Below, in pieces: positions 5,143 through 16,359 of a DNA stretch of 64,000 nt. Every line of letters starts with the position of its first letter. Within the stretch, counting starts at the first letter, position 1. Position numbers and translations under genes: made by a program. The notes below the pieces were generated by a model, which was not told where the DNA came from, ran no database searches, and saw only the letters and a program-made list of their open reading frames with translations. The stretch is from an uncultured bacterium (GTDB lineage Bacteria > JAGRBM01 > JAHCIT01). The stretch covers positions 37,129-101,128 of the forward strand of contig CAZUMS010000003.1 in the NCBI GenBank assembly GCA_964621525.1, in the 5' to 3' direction.

Positions 5143-5739
5143 ATGGCGGATGAAAAGCAGTCCGGCCCCGTACACGGTGCGGGGGACAAGTTGACCAAGG
5201 CGGCACAACCCAAACCGGCGCTTCGTGCGCCCAAGCTCATGGCCGACGCCATCGGCCAGCTCATGGAGTTCTGGAATTTCAAGAGCAACCTGGGCCGCAT
5301 CTGGACGCTCCTTTATCTCTCTCCGGACCCGGTCGCCGCCGCCGATATCGCCGACCACCTGAACCTCTCCTCTGGCGCCGTCAGCATGGCGACGAATGAG
5401 CTCCTCCGCTGGAAGGCGATCAAGAAGATCCACCAGCCAGGCGAGCGCAAGGACTTCTTCACGGCCGAAACCGACCTGTGGCGGCTCATTACGGGCGTCC
5501 TGTCGGACCGCGAGCGGCGCGAGATCGAATCGGCCCTGGAGGCCTTCAAGGAAGCGCTCTCGGCGCTCGATTCCGAGAAGGACCACTACGATCCGAAGGA
5601 CTTCAGGTTCAAGAAGGAACGGATCGAGCGGATGTTCCAGCTCGCGATGATGGGCAAGACAATGCTCGACACGCTCCTGAACCAGGCCCACCTCAACATG
5701 AAGCCGATCCGCGAGCATCTGGACAAGCTGAAGAGCTGA
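5143..5739 (+). CDS. GbsR/MarR-family HTH transcriptional regulator
   Basis: 198 aa; winged-helix region LGRIWTLLYLSPDPVAAADIADHLNLSSGAVSMATNELLRWKAI typical of GbsR-type regulators; start 4 nt after the menA-like stop. Confidence 0.6.
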   Translation: MADEKQSGPVHGAGDKLTKAAQPKPALRAPKLMADAIGQLMEFWNFKSNLGRIWTLLYLSPDPVAAADIADHLNLSSGAVSMATNELLRWKAIKKIHQPGERKDFFTAETDLWRLITGVLSDRERREIESALEAFKEALSALDSEKDHYDPKDFRFKKERIERMFQLAMMGKTMLDTLLNQAHLNMKPIREHLDKLKS

Positions 5740-6083: not shown

Positions 6084-7583
6084 TCAGCCGCGGCTTCCGT
6101 GGAGCGTATCGCCCACGTAGCACTCGATGCCGAGTTCCTTGAGGTCGAGACCCTCGACTTCCTCTTCCTCGGACACGCGGACGCCCATCACGGCTTTCAC
6201 CGCATACCAGACCACCAGGCTCGCCGGGAACGCATAGGCTCCGACAGCGACGATGCCGATGATCTGATTGATGAGCTGGCCGGCGCCGCCTCCGTAGAAG
6301 AGGCCGAGGCCGGGCTGGGCTTCTCCGCCGGCAAAGGCCGGAGCGGCGAACAGGCCCACGCAGAGCGTGCCCCAGATCCCGTTGGCGAGGTGGACCGAGA
6401 GCGCGCCGACCGGGTCGTCGATCTTCAGCTTGTCCCAGAACAGCACGCTGTAGAAGCAGAGGATGCCGCCGACCGCGCCGATCACGAACGCGCCGCCTGC
6501 CGTTACCCAGGCGCACGGGGCGGTGATCGCCACGAGGCCCGCGAGGCAGCCGTTCAGCGACATGCCAAGGTCAGGCTTGCCGAACGTGATCCAGGCGATA
6601 GCCGTCGCGGTCGCCATGCCTGCCACTGCGGCGATATTCGTCGTCATGGCGATGTGGGCGATGGCGCCGCCGTCCCAGGTCATGGTCGAGCCGGGGTTGA
6701 ACCCGAACCAGCCGAGCCACAGGATCAGCGTGCCGAGCACGACGAGCGGAATTGAGTGGGCCGGAATCGCGTTGACCTTGCCGTCGGCCGAGTACTTGCC
6801 GATACGCGGCCCGATCACGAGGATGCCGGCGAGACCCGCCCAGCCGCCCACCGAGTGGACGACCGTGGAGCCCGCGAAGTCCCAGAATCCCTTGCCGGCG
6901 AGCCAGCCGGCACCCCAGATCCACTTGCCGGGGACCGGGTAAACCAGTGCTGTCAGCAGGAATGCGAAGACAACGAAGGAGAGATACTTGTTCCGCTCGT
7001 CCACGCAGCCGGAGACGATCGTCGCGGCCGTGCCGGCGAAGGCGAGCTGGAAGAAGAACTTGCCTTCCAGCGCCACGTTCGCCCAGCCGAGGGCGCCGGT
7101 GTAAAGTTCTTCAGGACCGATAAATGGCGTGAAAGAGCCCAGGAAGCCGCTTCCCTCGCCGAACATGAGCGAGAACCCGATCACCCAGTAGGCGAGCGTC
7201 GCCGCGCCGAACACGACGAAGTTCTTGCCGAGGATCGTGGCCGCGTTCTTCTTGCGGCAGAAACCGCTCTCCACAAGCGCGAAACCGGCGTTCATGAAGA
7301 ACACCAGGAAGCCGGCGATCATCGTCCAGACCGTATCGGCCGAAAACTTGATCGCATCGGTGCGGGCCTTCAGTTCTTCAAGCTGCTTGCTCAGCTCTTC
7401 CGTCGAAGGACCGGCCGGGGCTGCCGCGGCAGCCGGTGCCGCTTCGGCGGGCGGAGCGGCCTCAGCCGGTGCGGCCGCTGCTTCGGCCGGCGGCGGCGTG
7501 TCCTGCGCCGTGACGAGGGACGGACGCCAGAGCGCCGCCCCCAGCAGCATCAGTGCGAGAATTACTGTGGATTTCTTCAACAT
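6084..7583 (-). CDS. amt: ammonium transporter (Amt/MEP family), paralog 1
   Basis: 499 aa; signal peptide plus Ala/Pro-rich linker, then the Amt core (DTVWTMIAGFLVFFMNAGFALVESG ... 11 TM). Confidence 0.9.
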   Translation of the reverse strand: MLKKSTVILALMLLGAALWRPSLVTAQDTPPPAEAAAAPAEAAPPAEAAPAAAAAPAGPSTEELSKQLEELKARTDAIKFSADTVWTMIAGFLVFFMNAGFALVESGFCRKKNAATILGKNFVVFGAATLAYWVIGFSLMFGEGSGFLGSFTPFIGPEELYTGALGWANVALEGKFFFQLAFAGTAATIVSGCVDERNKYLSFVVFAFLLTALVYPVPGKWIWGAGWLAGKGFWDFAGSTVVHSVGGWAGLAGILVIGPRIGKYSADGKVNAIPAHSIPLVVLGTLILWLGWFGFNPGSTMTWDGGAIAHIAMTTNIAAVAGMATATAIAWITFGKPDLGMSLNGCLAGLVAITAPCAWVTAGGAFVIGAVGGILCFYSVLFWDKLKIDDPVGALSVHLANGIWGTLCVGLFAAPAFAGGEAQPGLGLFYGGGAGQLINQIIGIVAVGAYAFPASLVVWYAVKAVMGVRVSEEEEVEGLDLKELGIECYVGDTLHGSRG

Positions 7584-7800
7584 GGCTTTTCCTGCCTCTC
7601 CCGTTTTTCATCGTTCGGGAACGGAACCCTTGGAAGATCACCGGCGGACCTCCGGCCTTTACAACCTGTCCGTCTGCCGGATCCATTTCAGACCCGGCGG
7701 GGATCTCTTCGGGTTCCGGACCTCGTTTCAAATGGTTTTTGTCTCTCAGGCGAGACAGGCCGGGCCGGGTGGATCGGACGGCACGGCAGTCTTTCCCACC
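7584..7800 (-). promoter_or_regulatory. amt1 5' leader (~215 nt) with conserved 5' block
   Basis: Minus-strand block gggaaagac..gtgccg..gatccacccgg.ccgg..gtct.gcctgag (plus 7741-7800) is shared with the amt2 leader (plus 10196-10245); it lies immediately downstream of the predicted sigma54 promoter. Confidence 0.5.
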
Positions 7801-7809
7801 GGGGCGGAC

Positions 7810-7825
7810 TGCACTTGGCAGGCCA
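7810..7825 (-). promoter_or_regulatory. sigma54 (RpoN) -24/-12 promoter for amt1
   Basis: Minus strand TGGCCTGCCAAGTGCA: GG and GC in canonical positions (TGGCAC-N5-TTGCA spacing). Confidence 0.55.
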
Positions 7826-8085
7826 CGATGATCTGCAGCCGGACAAAAAGCGCCTGAAGGCAGGGTTGAATCCGCCGGAAGTTCAGGACGCGACAAACAA
7901 ACTCAAGCTACTGTAAGTATAAGCGAAATTAAGGAATCCTCCCCCGGCTGAAGGCACAGCTTTCGGGGTTCATTTTTTTGTCAAGGCTACAGGCTCCCGG
8001 CCCGGAACTAGTGTCTAAATATGTTGCAAGGATGCGGCTGAGAGCCGAGGCTTTGCCCGGAAATTGTGCATCCGGACGAAAATGG

Positions 8086-8349
8086 GGGCCGGTGCCCAGC
8101 CAGGGATTGGGAAAACCGGGTCCAGTACCGTTTTGCCGGAGCCCGTCAGCCGGATCATTTGCACGATCCGGCGATCCCGTGACGGTTCCGAGTACCGGAC
8201 CTCGGTCGAGGAAACCCTCTGCCGGGCGCCGGCCTGCCCAAGGTCGTTGCGAAGCGGCGGAACCCGAAGGAGAAGAGGCACCATTGGCTGCGCGGCGGTT
8301 GCGTTGCGGTTCATGTTGCCTCCCTCCTTCAGTGTCCGGCTTCCAGGCG
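8086..8349. repeat. conserved ~265-nt noncoding element, copy B (immediately 3' of amt2)
   Basis: See copy A. Contains SD gaaggagggagg plus ATG ~36 nt after the amt2 stop (track ORF 8015..8314). Confidence 0.7.
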
Positions 8350-10038
8350 TCAGCGGGCGTGCGGGGTCTCGGACGCCTTGTCCATCACGACACCCACATA
8401 CGCGGCGCAGCCCATTTCCGGGATATCAAGACCCTCAATCTCGGCTTCCACGGGTGTCCTGAGACCGACAGTCACATCGAGCAGCTTGAAGACCGCAAAA
8501 CCGATGGCGCCCACATAGACGAAGTTCGTGAGCACGCCGATCGACTGGGCGATGAACTGGCTCGCATCTCCGTAGAAGAGGCCCTTCACCGGACCGGCAA
8601 CGCCGTTCCAGCCATCGCCGTAGGAACCGTCGGCGAAAAGACCCAGGGCGAGGCAGCCCCAGGCGCCGTTCACGCCATGGACCGCCACCGCACCTACCGG
8701 GTCGTCGATCTTGAGGACGCGCTCGATGAAGAACACGGCCTCGACCACGATGATGCCGGAGACGAGCCCGATGATGCAGGAGGCCATGGAGTTCACGAAC
8801 GCACAGGGTGCCGTGATCGCCACAAGCCCGGCGAGCATACCGTTCGCCATCATGCTGGGATCCGGCTTACCCATCCGGAAAGCCCAGCAGTAGAGCGTGG
8901 CCGCGAGCGCGCCGGTCATGGATGCGAGCATCGTGTTCACGGCTACCACTGCCAGACGAAGATCCGTGCCAGCGAGTGTTGAACCGGGGTTAAACCCGAA
9001 CCAGCCGAAAGCGAGAATAAAGGTGCCGATGATTGCCATCGGAATGTTGTGGCCGGGGATCGGGTTCGGCGAGCCGTCCTTGTTGTATTTTCCGGCGCGG
9101 GGGCCAATCAGCCATCCGCCCACGAGCGCGAGCACGCCGCCCGTCATGTGCACGACCGAGGAGCCGGCGAAATCCACATGCCCGTGACCGAGGCCGTAAT
9201 ACTTGCCCAGCGTCGCCAGGAAGCCGCCGCCCCAGACCCAGCAGCCGTAGATCGGATAAATGATCGTGCCGACGGCGAGGCCATAGAGGAAGAACGACTT
9301 GTAGTTCCAGCGTTCGGCCATGGAACCGGTGGGAATCGTCGCCGTGGTGTCCATGAACACCATCTGGAAGAGGAACAGCGCGAAGATCGAGACATCGTAG
9401 ACGTCGGATCCGAGGAAGAAGCCCTTCGTACCGAACAGCACCCAGTCGTTACCGCCCACCTTGATCGAGAAGGCGGAGTTCAGCACATCCGTGCCGCCCA
9501 GCGTGCCCAGCGCCCCGAAGCCGCCGAACATGAAAGCGAAGCCGCACACGTAGAAACCGAGCATCCCGAGCGGATAGATCAGGAAGTTCATGGCCATTGT
9601 ATGCGACGCATTCTTGGCGCGGGTGAAGCCGGTCTCGACCATGGCGAATCCGGCCTGCATGAACATGACGAGGAAGCCGGCCAGCATGGTCCACACCATG
9701 TTGATCGAAACCTTGTTCTTGCCGACCTGGTTGGCGACGTCGCCCAGGGTCAACTTACCGGCTTCCGACTGAGGAACATCGGTCATGTTGCCCGTGGCGC
9801 CGCCACTGGGATCCGGCGCCCGCGGCGAGGCCGGCGCCTCGACCGTAATGCTCATCTCCACTGGCGCGGGCGGCGCTGCCGGCGGAGCGGGTGTGGCGGC
9901 GGCCTCTGCCGCCGGCGCAGAAGTCTCCGCCGGAGGTGGTACGGTTTCGTCGGCATTGGCCCAGTGGGGAACAATCAGTAGCGCGGCTGCGAACCAGACG
10001 ATCGCCGCAAAACTCATAATCTTTCTGGATTTACTCAT
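8350..10038 (-). CDS. amt: ammonium transporter (Amt/MEP family), paralog 2
   Basis: 562 aa; signal peptide MSKSRKIMSFAAIVWFAAALLIVPHWANA, Pro/Ala-rich linker, Amt core (NMVWTMLAGFLVMFMQAGFAMVETG). About 50% identity to paralog 1. Confidence 0.9.
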   Translation of the reverse strand: MSKSRKIMSFAAIVWFAAALLIVPHWANADETVPPPAETSAPAAEAAATPAPPAAPPAPVEMSITVEAPASPRAPDPSGGATGNMTDVPQSEAGKLTLGDVANQVGKNKVSINMVWTMLAGFLVMFMQAGFAMVETGFTRAKNASHTMAMNFLIYPLGMLGFYVCGFAFMFGGFGALGTLGGTDVLNSAFSIKVGGNDWVLFGTKGFFLGSDVYDVSIFALFLFQMVFMDTTATIPTGSMAERWNYKSFFLYGLAVGTIIYPIYGCWVWGGGFLATLGKYYGLGHGHVDFAGSSVVHMTGGVLALVGGWLIGPRAGKYNKDGSPNPIPGHNIPMAIIGTFILAFGWFGFNPGSTLAGTDLRLAVVAVNTMLASMTGALAATLYCWAFRMGKPDPSMMANGMLAGLVAITAPCAFVNSMASCIIGLVSGIIVVEAVFFIERVLKIDDPVGAVAVHGVNGAWGCLALGLFADGSYGDGWNGVAGPVKGLFYGDASQFIAQSIGVLTNFVYVGAIGFAVFKLLDVTVGLRTPVEAEIEGLDIPEMGCAAYVGVVMDKASETPHAR

Positions 10039-10248
10039 GATCGGTTTCCTGTCTCTCCATGAAATTCACTGCCGCCGTTTCACTTCATCCTGCGGGAGCC
10101 CGGCGCCGGAATCCGTCGTCGGCCCTTCTGGATGGAGCAGCCGACTCAAGCTCGTCGGCGGTTTCAGCAGTGCCGTTGTTGAGGCCTCAGGCAGACGGAC
10201 CGGTCCGGGTGGATCTGGCGGCACAGTCGTCTTTCCCGTCCGAGACGA

Positions 10249-10264
10249 AGCATCAGCTATGCCA
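10249..10264 (-). promoter_or_regulatory. sigma54 (RpoN) -24/-12 promoter for amt2
   Basis: Minus strand TGGCATAGCTGATGCT: TGGCAT-N5-ATGCT with GG/GC at canonical spacing; followed by a leader conserved with amt1. Confidence 0.55.
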
Positions 10265-10460
10265 TAAAAATGAACTAAAAATTTTAGTCTATTTCCGAGA
10301 TATATTCGGAAGAAATATCGGGAATAACGATGTCGAAATTTAATTCATAAGTATATGATATTATTTATATATTTTACCAATTACGGAGATAAATACAGCA
10401 CACCCGAAGGGACGTATTATCCTTCAAATAAATTGTACTAAAAATATGTGTTCATTCTTC
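10265..10460. promoter_or_regulatory. AT-rich island (~200 bp, roughly 25-30% GC) upstream of the amt2 sigma54 promoter
   Basis: Sequence aaaaatgaactaaaaattttagtctatttccgagatatattcgg...tatatgatattatttatatattttaccaatt in a ~67% GC genome; position fits an enhancer/IHF-bending region for a sigma54 promoter. Confidence 0.45.
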
Positions 10461-10967
10461 AAACACCGGTTGAGAACCGTGCGAGGATTTCCGTAATGCC
10501 TCAAAAATTGGCGATTCGAAGACCTGTCGCCCCATTTCTGGGCACATCTGTTCTTTCACCTCTGAATCCCGCTGCCGGAATGTCCAAAAACATGCTCTGT
10601 GGAAATCATTTTCTACCTTTTATTTCACATGGTTATAAAAGTCCTACGTATTCCGAAGCTCCCGGTGGAGTTCTTGGTTTCTGCCTTGCACATTGGGGAA
10701 ACGCTGAACCGGCCTGCCAGAGGATGGGGAACGTCCCGGTCGGGACCGGAAAGCCCGGTCCATACTGTTCTGTTAAGGACAGCTGGATCAGGAGAGCGGT
10801 CGGCAAGGTGGGACGGCGCCGGGTGAAAAACCGGCGCACCGGTGGATTCGGAACCCGTTAAACCCGGCACTCCAAAGAACAAGAAGCCGGTATCAGAGCC
10901 GTCCGGCGGGAGTGCGGAGGAAATCCGCCCCGCCCATGGCAACCCGGATTCCGGGTAGCTAGGTTAG

Positions 10968-11342
<375 letters not shown>

Positions 11343-11494
11343 TCCTGGAATAAAGAGTTCAAGATATCGGCAGGCGGCAGCAGGATCCCGTGCGGCAGCC
11401 GGCCGGAGGCGGGCAAGCGGCAACTGAAAAGGTGCAGGCTCCCGGTGGAAAACCAAAGCAGGGAAAAACAAACCCAAGGAGCACTGGTGTCATT

Positions 11495-12913
11495 ATGACG
11501 ACAGGCAAAGACGTTCTGAAAATGATCAAGGACCACGGCGTCGAGATGGTGGACCTCAAGTTCACCGACTTCCTCGGCTCGTGGCAGCACAAGAGTCACC
11601 CGATCAACATGATCGACGAGGATACGTTCACCGACGGCCTCGGTTTCGACGGCAGCTCGATCCGCGGCTGGGCCGACATCCAGGAATCGGACATGCTCTC
11701 GATCCCGGACCCCTCGACCGCCCGCATCGACCCGTTCATGCAGCATCCGACGCTGTCGCTCGTCTGCGACATCGTGGATCCCATCACCCGCCAGCCGTAT
11801 TCCCGCGACCCGCGCTATATCGCCAGGAAGGCCGAGGCCTACCTGAAGTCGACCGGTATCGGCGACACGGCCTATATCGGGCCGGAGCCGGAATTCTTCA
11901 TTTTTGACGACATCCGGTACGAGGTCGGCCAGCACAAGTCGTTCGTCTCGATCGACTCGGGCGAGGCCCACTGGAACTCGGGCCGCGACGAAGGCGGCAA
12001 CCAGGGCTACAAGATCCGCCCGAAGGAAGGCTACTTCCCGGTTTCCCCGTTCGACCAGCAGCAGGACATCCGCACGGAAATGTGCCTCGTCATGCAGAAG
12101 GTCGGCATCGCGGTCGAAACGCAGCACCACGAAGTCGCCACTGCCGGCCAGGCCGAGATCGACATGGTGTTCGACTCGCTGCTGAACATGGCCGACAAGG
12201 TGATGTGGTACAAGTACATCTGCCGCAACGTCGCCAAGCGCCACGGCAAGGTCGTGACGTTCATGCCGAAGCCCATGCCGGCCGACAACGGGTCGGGCAT
12301 GCACACCCACCAGTCGGTGTGGAAGGGCGGCAAGAACCTGTTCGCGGGCAGCGGCTACGGCGGACTGTCCGAGTTCGGCCTCTACTACATCGGCGGCATC
12401 CTGAAGCACGCCAAGGCTCTCAACGCCTTCACGAACCCGACGCTGAACAGCTACCGCCGTCTGGTTCCGGGCTTCGAGGCGCCGGTGTCCCTGGCCTACT
12501 CGTGCCGTAACCGCTCGGCCTCCTGCCGCATCCCGATGTACAGCAACAGCCCGAAGTCCAAGCGTGTGGAAGTCCGCTTCCCCGACGCGACCTGCAATCC
12601 GTACATCGCTTTCGCCGCCATGCTCATGGCCGGCCTCGACGGTGTTCAGAACAAGATCAACCCGGGCGATGCGCTGGACAAGAACCTGTACGATCTCTCG
12701 CCGGAAGAGCTCGCCAACGTGCCGCAGGCCTGCGGCTCGCTGGAAGAGGCGCTCGAGGCTCTGGAGAACGACCACAAGTTCCTCCTGAAGGGCGACGTCT
12801 TCACGAAGGACGTGATCGACACGCAGCTCGCCTGGAAGCGTCACCACGAAATCGACGTGGCCCGTTTCACGGTTCCGCCGATCGAGCACAAGCTCTACTT
12901 CGACGCCGGCTGA
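11495..12913 (+). CDS. glnA: glutamine synthetase type I
   Basis: 472 aa from [32 protein letters not shown]; SD aaggag 15 nt upstream; GS-I motifs ([25 protein letters not shown]). The track ORF begins 35 codons upstream at a GTG. Confidence 0.95.
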
Positions 12914-15093: not shown

Positions 15094-16359
15094 ATGCCGA
15101 AGAAAATCCTGGTCGCCGACGATTCCGTCACCATCCAGCGGGCCGTCCAGATCACCTTTTCAAACCAGCCGGATTTCACCGTCGAGTTCGCCAGGGACGG
15201 GGACGAGGCGCTCGCGAAGTTCAAGGCATCGAAACCCGATGCCGTCGTCGCCGACGTCGTGATGCCGAAGAAGAACGGTTACGACGTCGCCGAGGCGCTC
15301 AAGGGCCAGGGCGTGCCGGTGGTGCTGCTCAAGGTCAACTCCGAACCCTACAACGATGCCCGTGCGGCCGCCGCCGGAGTTGTCGAGGCGGTGCCGAAGC
15401 CCTTCGAAACGACGGCCCTCGTAGACGCCGTGAAGAACGCCATCGCCAAAGGCGCGGGCAAGGGCGCACCCGCCCCTGCCGCCGCGAAGCCCGCTGCTGC
15501 CCCGGCGGCGCCCAAACCGGTGGCTCCGGCACCTGCGGCGGCGAAGCCTGCGCCCGCCAAGGCGCCGGTTTCCCTCGAAGAAGAGACCGATTCGTGGGAT
15601 CTCGGCGAACCCGAAGCAGCCCCCGCCCCCGTGGCGGCCAAGGCTCCGGCTCCCGCGAAACCCGCCGCTCCTGTTCTCAAAGCTCCGCCTCCCTCGCCGC
15701 CCAAGCCGGCGCCAAAAGCGGTCGAGGAAGACTCGTGGGATCTTGGCGAACCGGAGGCTCCGGCAGCAGCCGCATCCCTCGAAGCCGAAGTCGAAGTCTC
15801 CGTCGAGACGGCGGCGGAGTCCCCCGCCTGGGATCTCGGCGAGACGGAAGCCGTTCCGGCTGAGACCGAAGCCGAAGTCGAGGTCGAACTGGCGGCCAGC
15901 GGCGGCGACATGTGGGATCTAGGCGAAACTGAAGCCGCCCCGGCCGTTCCCCCCGCGTCGATTGCGCCGTCCTTCGGACGCCAGGCTCCGGCGGCCGAGG
16001 TGGAAGTCGAACTGGCCTCGGACGGCGGCGATACCTGGGATCTCGGCGAGCCAGAAGCTGCTCCGCCCGCTCCCGCGACGCCACAGAAAATTCCGGTGAC
16101 TCCGCCCCCCGCGCCGCCGCCAGCTGCCCGTGCGGCTCCGGTTGCTCCGGCGGCAAAATCTGCCCCCGCCGCCCCCGCCACCGCCGTTCAGGTCAATGCC
16201 GCCCAGATCGAAGCGGCCGTGCGACAGGCGATCGAGCTGGCGCTCAAGCCCATGATCGACGAATCCGTGAAGCGGATCTCGAAGGCGATTACCGACGAGT
16301 TCCCGAAGATCGCCGAACGGCTGATCCAGAACGAGATCGACCGGCTCAAGGAAGGCTGA
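15094..16359 (+). CDS. response regulator with Pro/Ala-rich repeat linker and conserved C-terminal helix (RomR-like architecture)
   Basis: N-terminal receiver (ILVADDS...DAVVADVVMPKKNGYD...LLKVNSEP); ~250-aa A/P/E-rich linker with 5 copies of xWDLGE(P/T)EA(A/V)P; C-terminal AVRQAIELALKPMIDESVKRISKAITDEFPKIAERLIQNEIDRLKEG. Confidence 0.6.
   Translation: MPKKILVADDSVTIQRAVQITFSNQPDFTVEFARDGDEALAKFKASKPDAVVADVVMPKKNGYDVAEALKGQGVPVVLLKVNSEPYNDARAAAAGVVEAVPKPFETTALVDAVKNAIAKGAGKGAPAPAAAKPAAAPAAPKPVAPAPAAAKPAPAKAPVSLEEETDSWDLGEPEAAPAPVAAKAPAPAKPAAPVLKAPPPSPPKPAPKAVEEDSWDLGEPEAPAAAASLEAEVEVSVETAAESPAWDLGETEAVPAETEAEVEVELAASGGDMWDLGETEAAPAVPPASIAPSFGRQAPAAEVEVELASDGGDTWDLGEPEAAPPAPATPQKIPVTPPPAPPPAARAAPVAPAAKSAPAAPATAVQVNAAQIEAAVRQAIELALKPMIDESVKRISKAITDEFPKIAERLIQNEIDRLKEG
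15590..16060 (+). repeat. five dispersed ~33-nt direct repeats (tgggatctcggcgaaccngaagc) encoding the WDLGE motifs
   Basis: gattcgtgggatctcggcgaacccgaagcagcc / gactcgtgggatcttggcgaaccggaggctccg / gcctgggatctcggcgagacggaagccgttccg / atgtgggatctaggcgaaactgaagccgccccg / acctgggatctcggcgagccagaagctgctccg. Confidence 0.7.

Follow-up and report, generated by a model that had tools for sequence, protein, structure and literature searches.

What would an AT-rich tract of about 200 bp be doing immediately upstream of the promoter of an ammonium transporter gene in a GC-rich bacterial genome? This question is raised by 64,000 nucleotides of contig CAZUMS010000003.1 from an uncultured bacterium (hereafter the window, meaning this whole stretch), in which the gene amt2 diverges from the genes glnB and glnA across a spacer of 965 bp (10039-11003). 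A first-pass annotation of the letters alone had described a sharp AT-rich island in this spacer, and this description proved correct. The GC content of 10265-10460 is 0.270, compared with a mean of 0.641 (standard deviation 0.040) over all other 196-bp intervals (z = -9.2). The island, which includes the run tatatgatattatttatatatttt at 10354-10377, is the strongest AT outlier and the sole tract of its kind in the 64 kb. Outside the amt2-glnB spacer the GC minimum among 196-bp intervals is 0.50, and the gaps between called open reading frames (ORFs) elsewhere in the window never fall below 0.44 in any 100-bp interval. Three Logan contigs that were built independently, using other runs of the same study series, agree with the 965-bp spacer at every base (100% identity); the island is therefore real and not an assembly artefact. 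The proposed flanks were also borne out by Pfam matches: amt2 (8350-10038, minus strand) encodes a 562-aa ammonium transporter with a long N-terminal extension (Ammonium_transp, E = 5e-108), glnB (11004-11342, plus strand) a P-II protein (P-II, E = 9e-34), and glnA (11495-12913, plus strand) a product of 472 aa counted from ATG, with the domains Gln-synt_N and Gln-synt_C.

We compared the locus with related lineages, which were found by protein searches followed by contig look-ups and which share the neighbourhood of an amt gene divergent from glnB, glnA and a glycosyltransferase gene. These are L091 (from a JGI metagenome; GlnA identity 98%), L085 (GCA_964565925.1; 94%), L095 (GCA_964606035.1; about 90%) and L094 (GCA_026129095.1; 83-86%), the GlnA of the last being labelled as from a Deltaproteobacteria bacterium metagenome-assembled genome (MAG). 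Loci L101-L104 proved to duplicate the lineages of L095 and L094. Beyond these lineages, GlnA identity falls to only about 70%, in homologues annotated as Deltaproteobacteria or Thermodesulfobacteriota. A scan of a genome collection with Amt2 was discarded as a source of relatives: it returned 80 loci, all from unrelated lineages with other gene orders and a best identity of 77%, because Amt2 is widely spread among phyla.

Three elements in the window carry the GG and GC doublets of sigma-54 promoters exactly 10 bp apart in a TGGCAC-N5-TTGCW-like context. They lie upstream of amt2, of glnB and of amt1, a second amt gene downstream of amt2 (6084-7583, minus strand), and all three promoter types are kept in L091, L085, L094 and L095. 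The amt2 element TGGCATAGCTGATGCT (10264..10249, minus strand), of the -24/-12 type, is the only match to TGGYAYN5WTGCW in the 64 kb, where 0.16 would be expected by chance. L091 carries it unchanged, and at the matching place L085 reads TGGCATAGCCAATGCT. The island begins with the base next to this element, as the first-pass annotation had stated. Judging from the usual 11-12 nt between the GC of the -12 element and +1, amt2 transcription would start near 10238, and the block positions given below are counted from this predicted start. The glnB-glnA element is TGGTTTCTGCCTTGCA (10675-10690, plus strand); all five lineages retain TGGTTW-N5-TTGCA here, at a distance of 410-421 bp from the amt promoter. 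These promoter assignments rest on conservation, a loose weight-matrix scan having matched many sites in GC-rich coding sequence.

The distance between the two divergent promoters is nearly fixed. Measured from the first base of the amt -24 element to the first base of the glnB -24 element, it is 411 bp in the window and in L091, 410 bp in L085 and L094, and 421 bp in L095, and beyond L091 little of the intervening sequence can be aligned. Lengths outside this interval vary widely: the amt leaders of these loci measure 133-274 nt, and the glnB ATG lies 326-365 nt from the glnB -24 element. Insertions and deletions are therefore common nearby but not between the promoters, and the sole exception (L095) differs by about one helical turn. 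This suggests that the length or the helical phase between the promoters is constrained, although five lineages do not prove it, and descent would account for the distance as well if a tandem duplication had left the glnB-proximal junction intact. The constant distance also rules out a recent insertion as the source of the AT-rich island.

AT content next to the amt promoter changes along with relatedness. The GC content of the adjoining 200 bp is 0.22-0.38 in the window, 0.26-0.32 in L091, 0.36-0.44 in L085, 0.46-0.56 in L094 and 0.58-0.66 in L095. The AT-richness arose, or was lost, in place.

Within the island, conservation is concentrated in short blocks. Block A, ATAAAAATGAACTAAAAATTTTAGTC (10265-10290; -27 to -52), contains the palindrome ACTAAAA-a-TTTTAGT with an A5T4 tract; it is 88% identical to L091, with a GC content of 0.15 in the window and 0.11 in L091, and part of it is recognisable in L085. 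Block B, AAATTTAATTCATAAGTATATGATATTATTTATATATTTT (10333-10377; -95 to -139), is 79% identical to L091 (GC 0.13 and 0.12, respectively). Block C, TCATTCTTCAAACACCGGTTGAGA, lies at the right edge of the island (10451-10474), is 83% identical to L091 with a GC content of about 0.40, and is partly kept in L085. The spacers between the blocks have a GC content of 0.32-0.52 and are 43% identical to L091, which is close to saturation. For comparison, identity to L091 at four-fold degenerate sites of the neighbouring genes is 60% for amt2, 71% for amt1 and 83% for both glnB and glnA.

Block C also lies within a few bp of the midpoint between the promoters (10469.5). Dyads at the exact midpoint were considered and set aside as uninformative: they occur near the midpoint in every lineage, but arms of 4 bp are common by chance. 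Two further candidates within the island were dropped. The palindrome TTCCGA-N7-TCGGAA (10293-10311), which resembles an operator, is not conserved in L091, and three 27-nt direct repeats (at 10267, 10336 and 10430) share 63-74% identity, which by our own estimate is about what chance gives in AT-rich DNA.

We favour, with moderate confidence, the explanation that the island is an ordinary upstream architectural or enhancer module of the amt2 sigma-54 promoter. It would be a known kind of element, here unusually AT-rich and lineage-specific, and would form the amt2-proximal half of a 410-bp control region between the divergent amt2 and glnB-glnA sigma-54 promoters. Block A would most likely bend the DNA beside the polymerase, either intrinsically or with the help of a stabilising protein. 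Block B is, from its position only, a candidate activator site (upstream activating sequence) or nucleoid-protein site; it would most likely bind a nitrogen-responsive activator or an architectural protein, its position being usual for enhancer-binding activators. Together, blocks A and B would deliver the activator to the sigma-54 polymerase at amt2 by looping. The first-pass annotation had likewise suspected an enhancer or bending module, shared by amt2 and possibly glnB. That suggestion is supported in part, by the conserved amt2 promoter, by the location of the island directly upstream of it, by the conservation of blocks A and B and by a plausible bend at the A5T4 tract. The predicted curvature, however, is no more than that of shuffled sequences. 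As to sharing, glnB has its own divergent sigma-54 promoter, 411 bp from that of amt2.

Curvature was predicted with a dinucleotide wedge model. The highest value in the 64 kb, 38.6 degrees, falls at 10280 on the A5T4 tract of block A (the 99th percentile of the window is 24.4), and the second highest at 10442. In L091 the predicted curvature reaches 23-29 degrees at -40 to -80. A global bend produced by phased A-tracts was rejected, since the end-to-end ratio and the maximum curvature both match those of shuffles. A bend at this place is thus plausible according to the model, but in the way that any sequence this AT-rich would give one.

Several results weigh against an enhancer or bending module. 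The predicted bend is absent in L085, and 27% of composition-matched shuffles reach the maximum curvature of the island. The scans that had been recommended for integration host factor (IHF; WATCAANNNNTTR) and NtrC (TGCACC-N5-GGTGCA) gave no enrichment: the IHF consensus has one match with one mismatch (10348, minus strand), where 1.2 would be expected, and this match is lost in L091; the TGCACY half-site does not occur in 10265-10674; and the best match to the full NtrC site has four mismatches, as by chance. The patterns of TnrA/GlnR, NtcA and NrpR are also at or below chance. Among the window ORFs that were scanned, none has a Sigma54/RpoN, Sigma54_activat or IHF/HU-type domain. Nor does the strong tract extend to all relatives with the same layout, a finding that the first-pass annotation had itself listed among those that would count against its proposal. 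L085 manages with much less AT (36-44% GC), and L094 and L095 have normal GC and no AT tract in a spacer of the same length, though there the neighbouring amt gene is amt1-type. AT-richness as such is therefore not required for this promoter architecture in general. Finally, the comparison covers five lineages, of which the closest, L091, supplies most of the evidence for the blocks.

The extreme composition could instead serve silencing. AT-binding nucleoid proteins target AT-rich tracts in GC-rich genomes, and the island has the composition that a target of such a silencer would need: it is the strongest AT outlier (z = -9.2) in a sequence of 64% GC and directly abuts the amt2 promoter. The tract would then nucleate an AT-preferring nucleoid protein (H-NS-, MvaT- or Lsr2-like, or HU) that shuts amt2, and perhaps glnB, under plentiful nitrogen, with the activator partly relieving the block. 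However, we noticed no gene encoding a protein of this kind in the window, conservation is block-wise and not purely compositional, and relatives have the same promoters without the tract, so that we consider silencing unlikely. A different proposal starts from the constant distance of 410-421 bp over unalignable sequence. If only this distance mattered, the sequence could have decayed under a general GC-to-AT mutation bias, which would agree with an AT content graded with relatedness and with between-block spacers near saturation (identity 0.43). Yet the lowest-GC segments are the best conserved, the equally unconserved segments at 10475-10598 keep 44-58% GC, and no other non-coding gap in the window falls below 0.44 GC. 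That the extreme AT content sits in the conserved parts argues against pure mutational decay of an unconstrained spacer, and we find this proposal quite doubtful.

Two rivals make use of a symmetry in the island. The motif AATGAAC-N6-TTTTAGT occurs at 10269-10288 (plus strand) and as an exact inverted partner at 10437-10456 (minus strand), 168 bp from the left copy; no further exact copies were found in the window or in any fetched locus of other genomes. Both strands of the island fold with a z of about -2.1 because of these inverted copies, a signal that reflects DNA symmetry. Such copies might serve as operators at which a regulator forms a loop, or be the remains of terminal repeats. As operators, separated by about 16 helical turns, they would be bound by one oligomeric repressor or activator that loops out the flexible AT-rich DNA by the amt2 promoter. 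The match is exact at 14 of 14 positions, but it was noticed post hoc in low-complexity DNA; in L091 the pair is inexact (the left spacer has 7 bp, and the right copy has a deletion and two changes), and it is absent from L085. We therefore rate such a loop as decidedly unlikely. As terminal repeats, they would bound a mobile or foreign remnant, such as a miniature inverted-repeat element acquired together with amt2 or later. The composition is foreign to the genome; in addition, only some members of the clade have amt2 between amt1 and glnB, and the nearest homologues of amt2 belong to unrelated phyla. Against this, the promoters are 410-421 bp apart with or without the AT tract, so no length was added, and this contradicts the foreign DNA that the first-pass annotation had offered as an alternative. 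Nor was there a target-site duplication, or a second copy in the window or the loci searched; L091 has the tract in partly conserved form, and it can still be recognised in L085; the surrounding genes are of the housekeeping kind and include no transposase gene; and amt2 has a host-like GC content at third codon positions (GC3) of 0.81. A foreign origin is accordingly very improbable. The other alternative named there, an unannotated small RNA gene, fared no better, whether alone or widened to a small protein gene or a sigma-70 promoter inside the island. One sigma-70-like match (10344-10373) and a weak terminator-like hairpin on the minus strand (10399-10416) could be taken in its favour, but promoter and terminator counts equal chance expectation, neither the hairpin nor the promoter spacing is kept in L091, no small ORF in the island is common to L091, and the folding signal is equal on both strands. 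Rfam gave nothing relevant at the gathering threshold over the whole window or at E<=5 over 7500-11400, and there were no tRNAs. We give this possibility very little credence.

The remainder of the spacer (10460-11003) had been described as lacking a convincing ORF and as unexplained. The spacer ORFs of 94, 105 and 137 aa have no Pfam hit. The segment can now be accounted for, as it is made up of the glnB-proximal half of the control region, the glnB promoter at 10675-10690 and a leader of about 300 nt. Two conserved blocks lie in the glnB-proximal half. One, AATGCCTCAAAAATTGGCG (10494-10513), is situated about 190-205 bp upstream of the predicted glnB start and is 90% identical to L091; its TGCC-N-CAAAAA..GCG is kept in L085, and a bend is predicted at this block in the window, L091 and L085. 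The other (10599-10643; -102 to -58) is an AT-rich block upstream of the glnB promoter that contains CTGTGGAAAT and GGTTATAAAAG and has a GC content of 0.29 in both the window and L091. CTGTGGAWAA and GGTTAT keep their distances from the glnB promoter in L085 and L094. About 95 bp before the glnB -24 element, at an identical distance from it, both L085 (on its reverse strand) and L094 read CTGTGGATAA, and degenerate forms stand at the place of 10599-10608, CTGTGGAAAT in the window and TTGTGAAAAT in L091. The sequence TGTGGATAA matches the DnaA-box consensus.

The predicted amt transcripts share a structured 5' end. In amt2, whose leader would be about 200 nt (10039-10238), an extended hairpin at 10188-10238 (minus strand) combines the invariant GGGAAAGAC, the loop GAUCCACC and GCCUGA. 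A leader hairpin motif of about 50 nt lies upstream of all eight amt genes in the five related lineages (two each in the window, L091 and L085, and those of L094 and L095). In the window, the amt1 promoter TGGCCTGCCAAGTGCA (7810-7825, minus strand) is followed by such a hairpin at 7747-7798. The structure was predicted unaided by RNAalifold; 87% of cells pair, compared with 21-45% when the partners are slid, and there are compensatory changes at two or three pairs. Covariance model R1 matches only the eight amt hairpins in about 830 kb of amt loci of other lineages plus the window, and Rfam holds nothing comparable. Seven other metagenome matches to the leader pattern had no amt genes, and the more distant Amt1 homologues L096-L100 have neither a glnB neighbour nor the hairpin. 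The amt ribosome-binding region, GGGAGAGGCAGGAAAAGCCATG, is nearly invariant, and CCUGUCUC, immediately 3' of the hairpin, is by eye complementary to GAGGCAGG inside it.

On the other side, the predicted glnB 5' leader (10701-11003, plus strand) contains the blocks CCGGTGGA, CCATGGCAAC and GGTAGCTAGGTTAGGCCGCC, which are conserved in the five-lineage alignment; it has no ORF conserved with L091 and no Rfam match. An invariant GGUGGA(U) at 10834-10850 (plus strand) directly follows a covarying hairpin (+125 to +144) in all five lineages, and is the reverse complement of the amt hairpin loop. Pairing between this loop and the glnB leader was tried and rejected: the leader site was the best target in four of the five lineages, with an energy no better than in shuffled leaders. 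According to these predictions, an RNA-RNA contact is only a lead. A more ambitious reading would treat the 410-bp interval as a phase-locked nucleoprotein unit, whose length is set at 410 or 411 bp, or at 421 bp with one turn more, and whose sequence is free. One central factor, or a loop between the AATGAAC-N6-TTTTAGT copies, would coordinate both promoters, coupled to a clade-specific RNA layer made up of the 5' hairpin with the GAUCCACC loop on every amt mRNA and the complementary GGUGGAU in the glnB leader. We regard this as a rather long shot.

Amt gene content varies in the clade. The window (6084-10038) and L091 have amt1 and amt2, and both amt genes of L085 (6001-10223) are amt2-type, with a promoter and leader of amt1 type preceding the distal one. 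Only an amt1-type gene adjoins glnB in L094 (1592-3054) and L095 (302-1768); this gene is 75-77% identical to Amt1 and 40% to Amt2. Among the five lineages compared, an amt2-type gene therefore occupies the glnB-proximal position only in the window, L091 and L085. The amt2 orthologues are 93% identical in L091 and 79-87% in L085. The nearest homologues of Amt2 (72-77%) are found in Omnitrophota, Schekmanbacteria and Bacteroidota MAGs, and their occurrence in unrelated phyla suggests that the Amt2 coding sequence has been exchanged horizontally. The N-terminal extension of Amt2 places about 100 residues before the transporter domain, which in Pfam begins at residue 115. It is coded at 9830-10038 (minus strand), where the DNA reaches 76-79% GC, and full-length matches to the Amt2 query were limited to Verrucomicrobiota/Opitutae homologues.

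Other features of the neighbourhood lie further from the spacer. The ATG at 11495 is probably the true start of glnA, chosen from the translation and from orthologues of 472 aa. Between the amt2 stop and the amt1 promoter are 524 bp (7826-8349), including a 99-aa ORF (8015-8314, minus strand). Blocks in this interval, among them TCAGGGATTGGGAAAA, CCGGCGATCCCGTG and GGAGGAAACCCTCTG, recur as conserved DNA in L091 and L085, neither of which has a called gene there, and the interval is probably non-coding. On the plus strand, a terminator-like hairpin followed by a T-run lies at about 7935-7980. Further along, 15094-16359 (plus strand) encodes a 421-aa response regulator, in which a receiver domain is followed by about 300 residues without a Pfam match. 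A 413-aa receiver-domain protein is at the matching place in L094, downstream of glnA, the glycosyltransferase gene and two small ORFs, and L095 has a 416-aa gene at this position with no recorded Pfam hit. Adjoining the end of amt1, 5143-5739 (plus strand) encodes a protein of 198 aa that weakly matches a MarR-like winged helix (E = 7e-5) and might be a local regulator. L085 and L101 have a gene of similar size at its position, with no recorded Pfam hit.

If the island is indeed an upstream module of the amt2 promoter, then a sigma-54 upstream region has shifted in place from about 55% to about 27% GC with its length unchanged. The targets of selection would have been the spacing and two short AT-rich blocks, and not the bulk of the sequence. 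In that case the locus would offer a clean natural experiment in which the effects of spacing, bending and activator sites at bacterial enhancers could be told apart. It would likewise mark out the region of nitrogen control in an uncultured lineage, the nearest named relatives of which are annotated as Deltaproteobacteria. As for annotation, a 965-bp spacer that had seemed empty is now assigned two promoters, two long leaders and a control region.

How does this arrangement compare with known systems? In enteric NtrC-dependent sigma-54 promoters, such as glnAp2 and glnK-amtB, a -24/-12 promoter precedes amt and glnB/glnA genes, and the activator binds at about -100 to -140. Here, too, -24/-12 elements precede amt and glnB/glnA genes, with an upstream region at about -100 to -140. 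Unlike the enteric systems, this locus has no TGCACC-N5-GGTGCA site or half-site, its promoters diverge about 410 bp apart, its leaders are 200-300 nt long and its AT content is extreme. Curved A/T tracts or UP-like elements assist sigma-54 promoters elsewhere, as in the upstream tracts of Klebsiella pneumoniae nifLA and at Pseudomonas putida Pu. The island resembles these in placing AT-rich DNA between a candidate activator site and the promoter, with a bend predicted next to the polymerase, but its curvature is no more than composition predicts and is not conserved in L085. With miniature inverted-repeat transposable elements it shares a unit of about 190 bp bounded by inverted repeats; unlike them, it shows neither a target duplication nor another copy, and there is no difference in length from relatives without the AT tract.

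Two further systems offer parallels. The orp1/orp2 region of Desulfovibrio vulgaris has divergent sigma-54 promoters with enhancer-binding protein sites at -131/-88 and IHF sites at -42/-79/-43 (PMC3897727). The amt2-glnB spacer differs, or may differ, in its inter-promoter distance, genes and activator and has no IHF-consensus site, but it likewise has two divergent sigma-54 promoters in one intergenic region, with blocks A and B at comparable distances. In Geobacter sulfurreducens, which belongs to a lineage labelled Deltaproteobacteria, the GnfL/GnfM regulon includes glnB among the nitrogen genes with RpoN-dependent promoters, and GnfM footprints cover -131 to -91 (PMC2995071). The nearest named GlnA homologues of the window are annotated as Deltaproteobacteria or Thermodesulfobacteriota, and block B, at -95 to -139, matches the range of the GnfM sites. 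GlnA of the present lineage is, however, only about 70% identical to those of such groups, and the window contains no GnfM-like gene.

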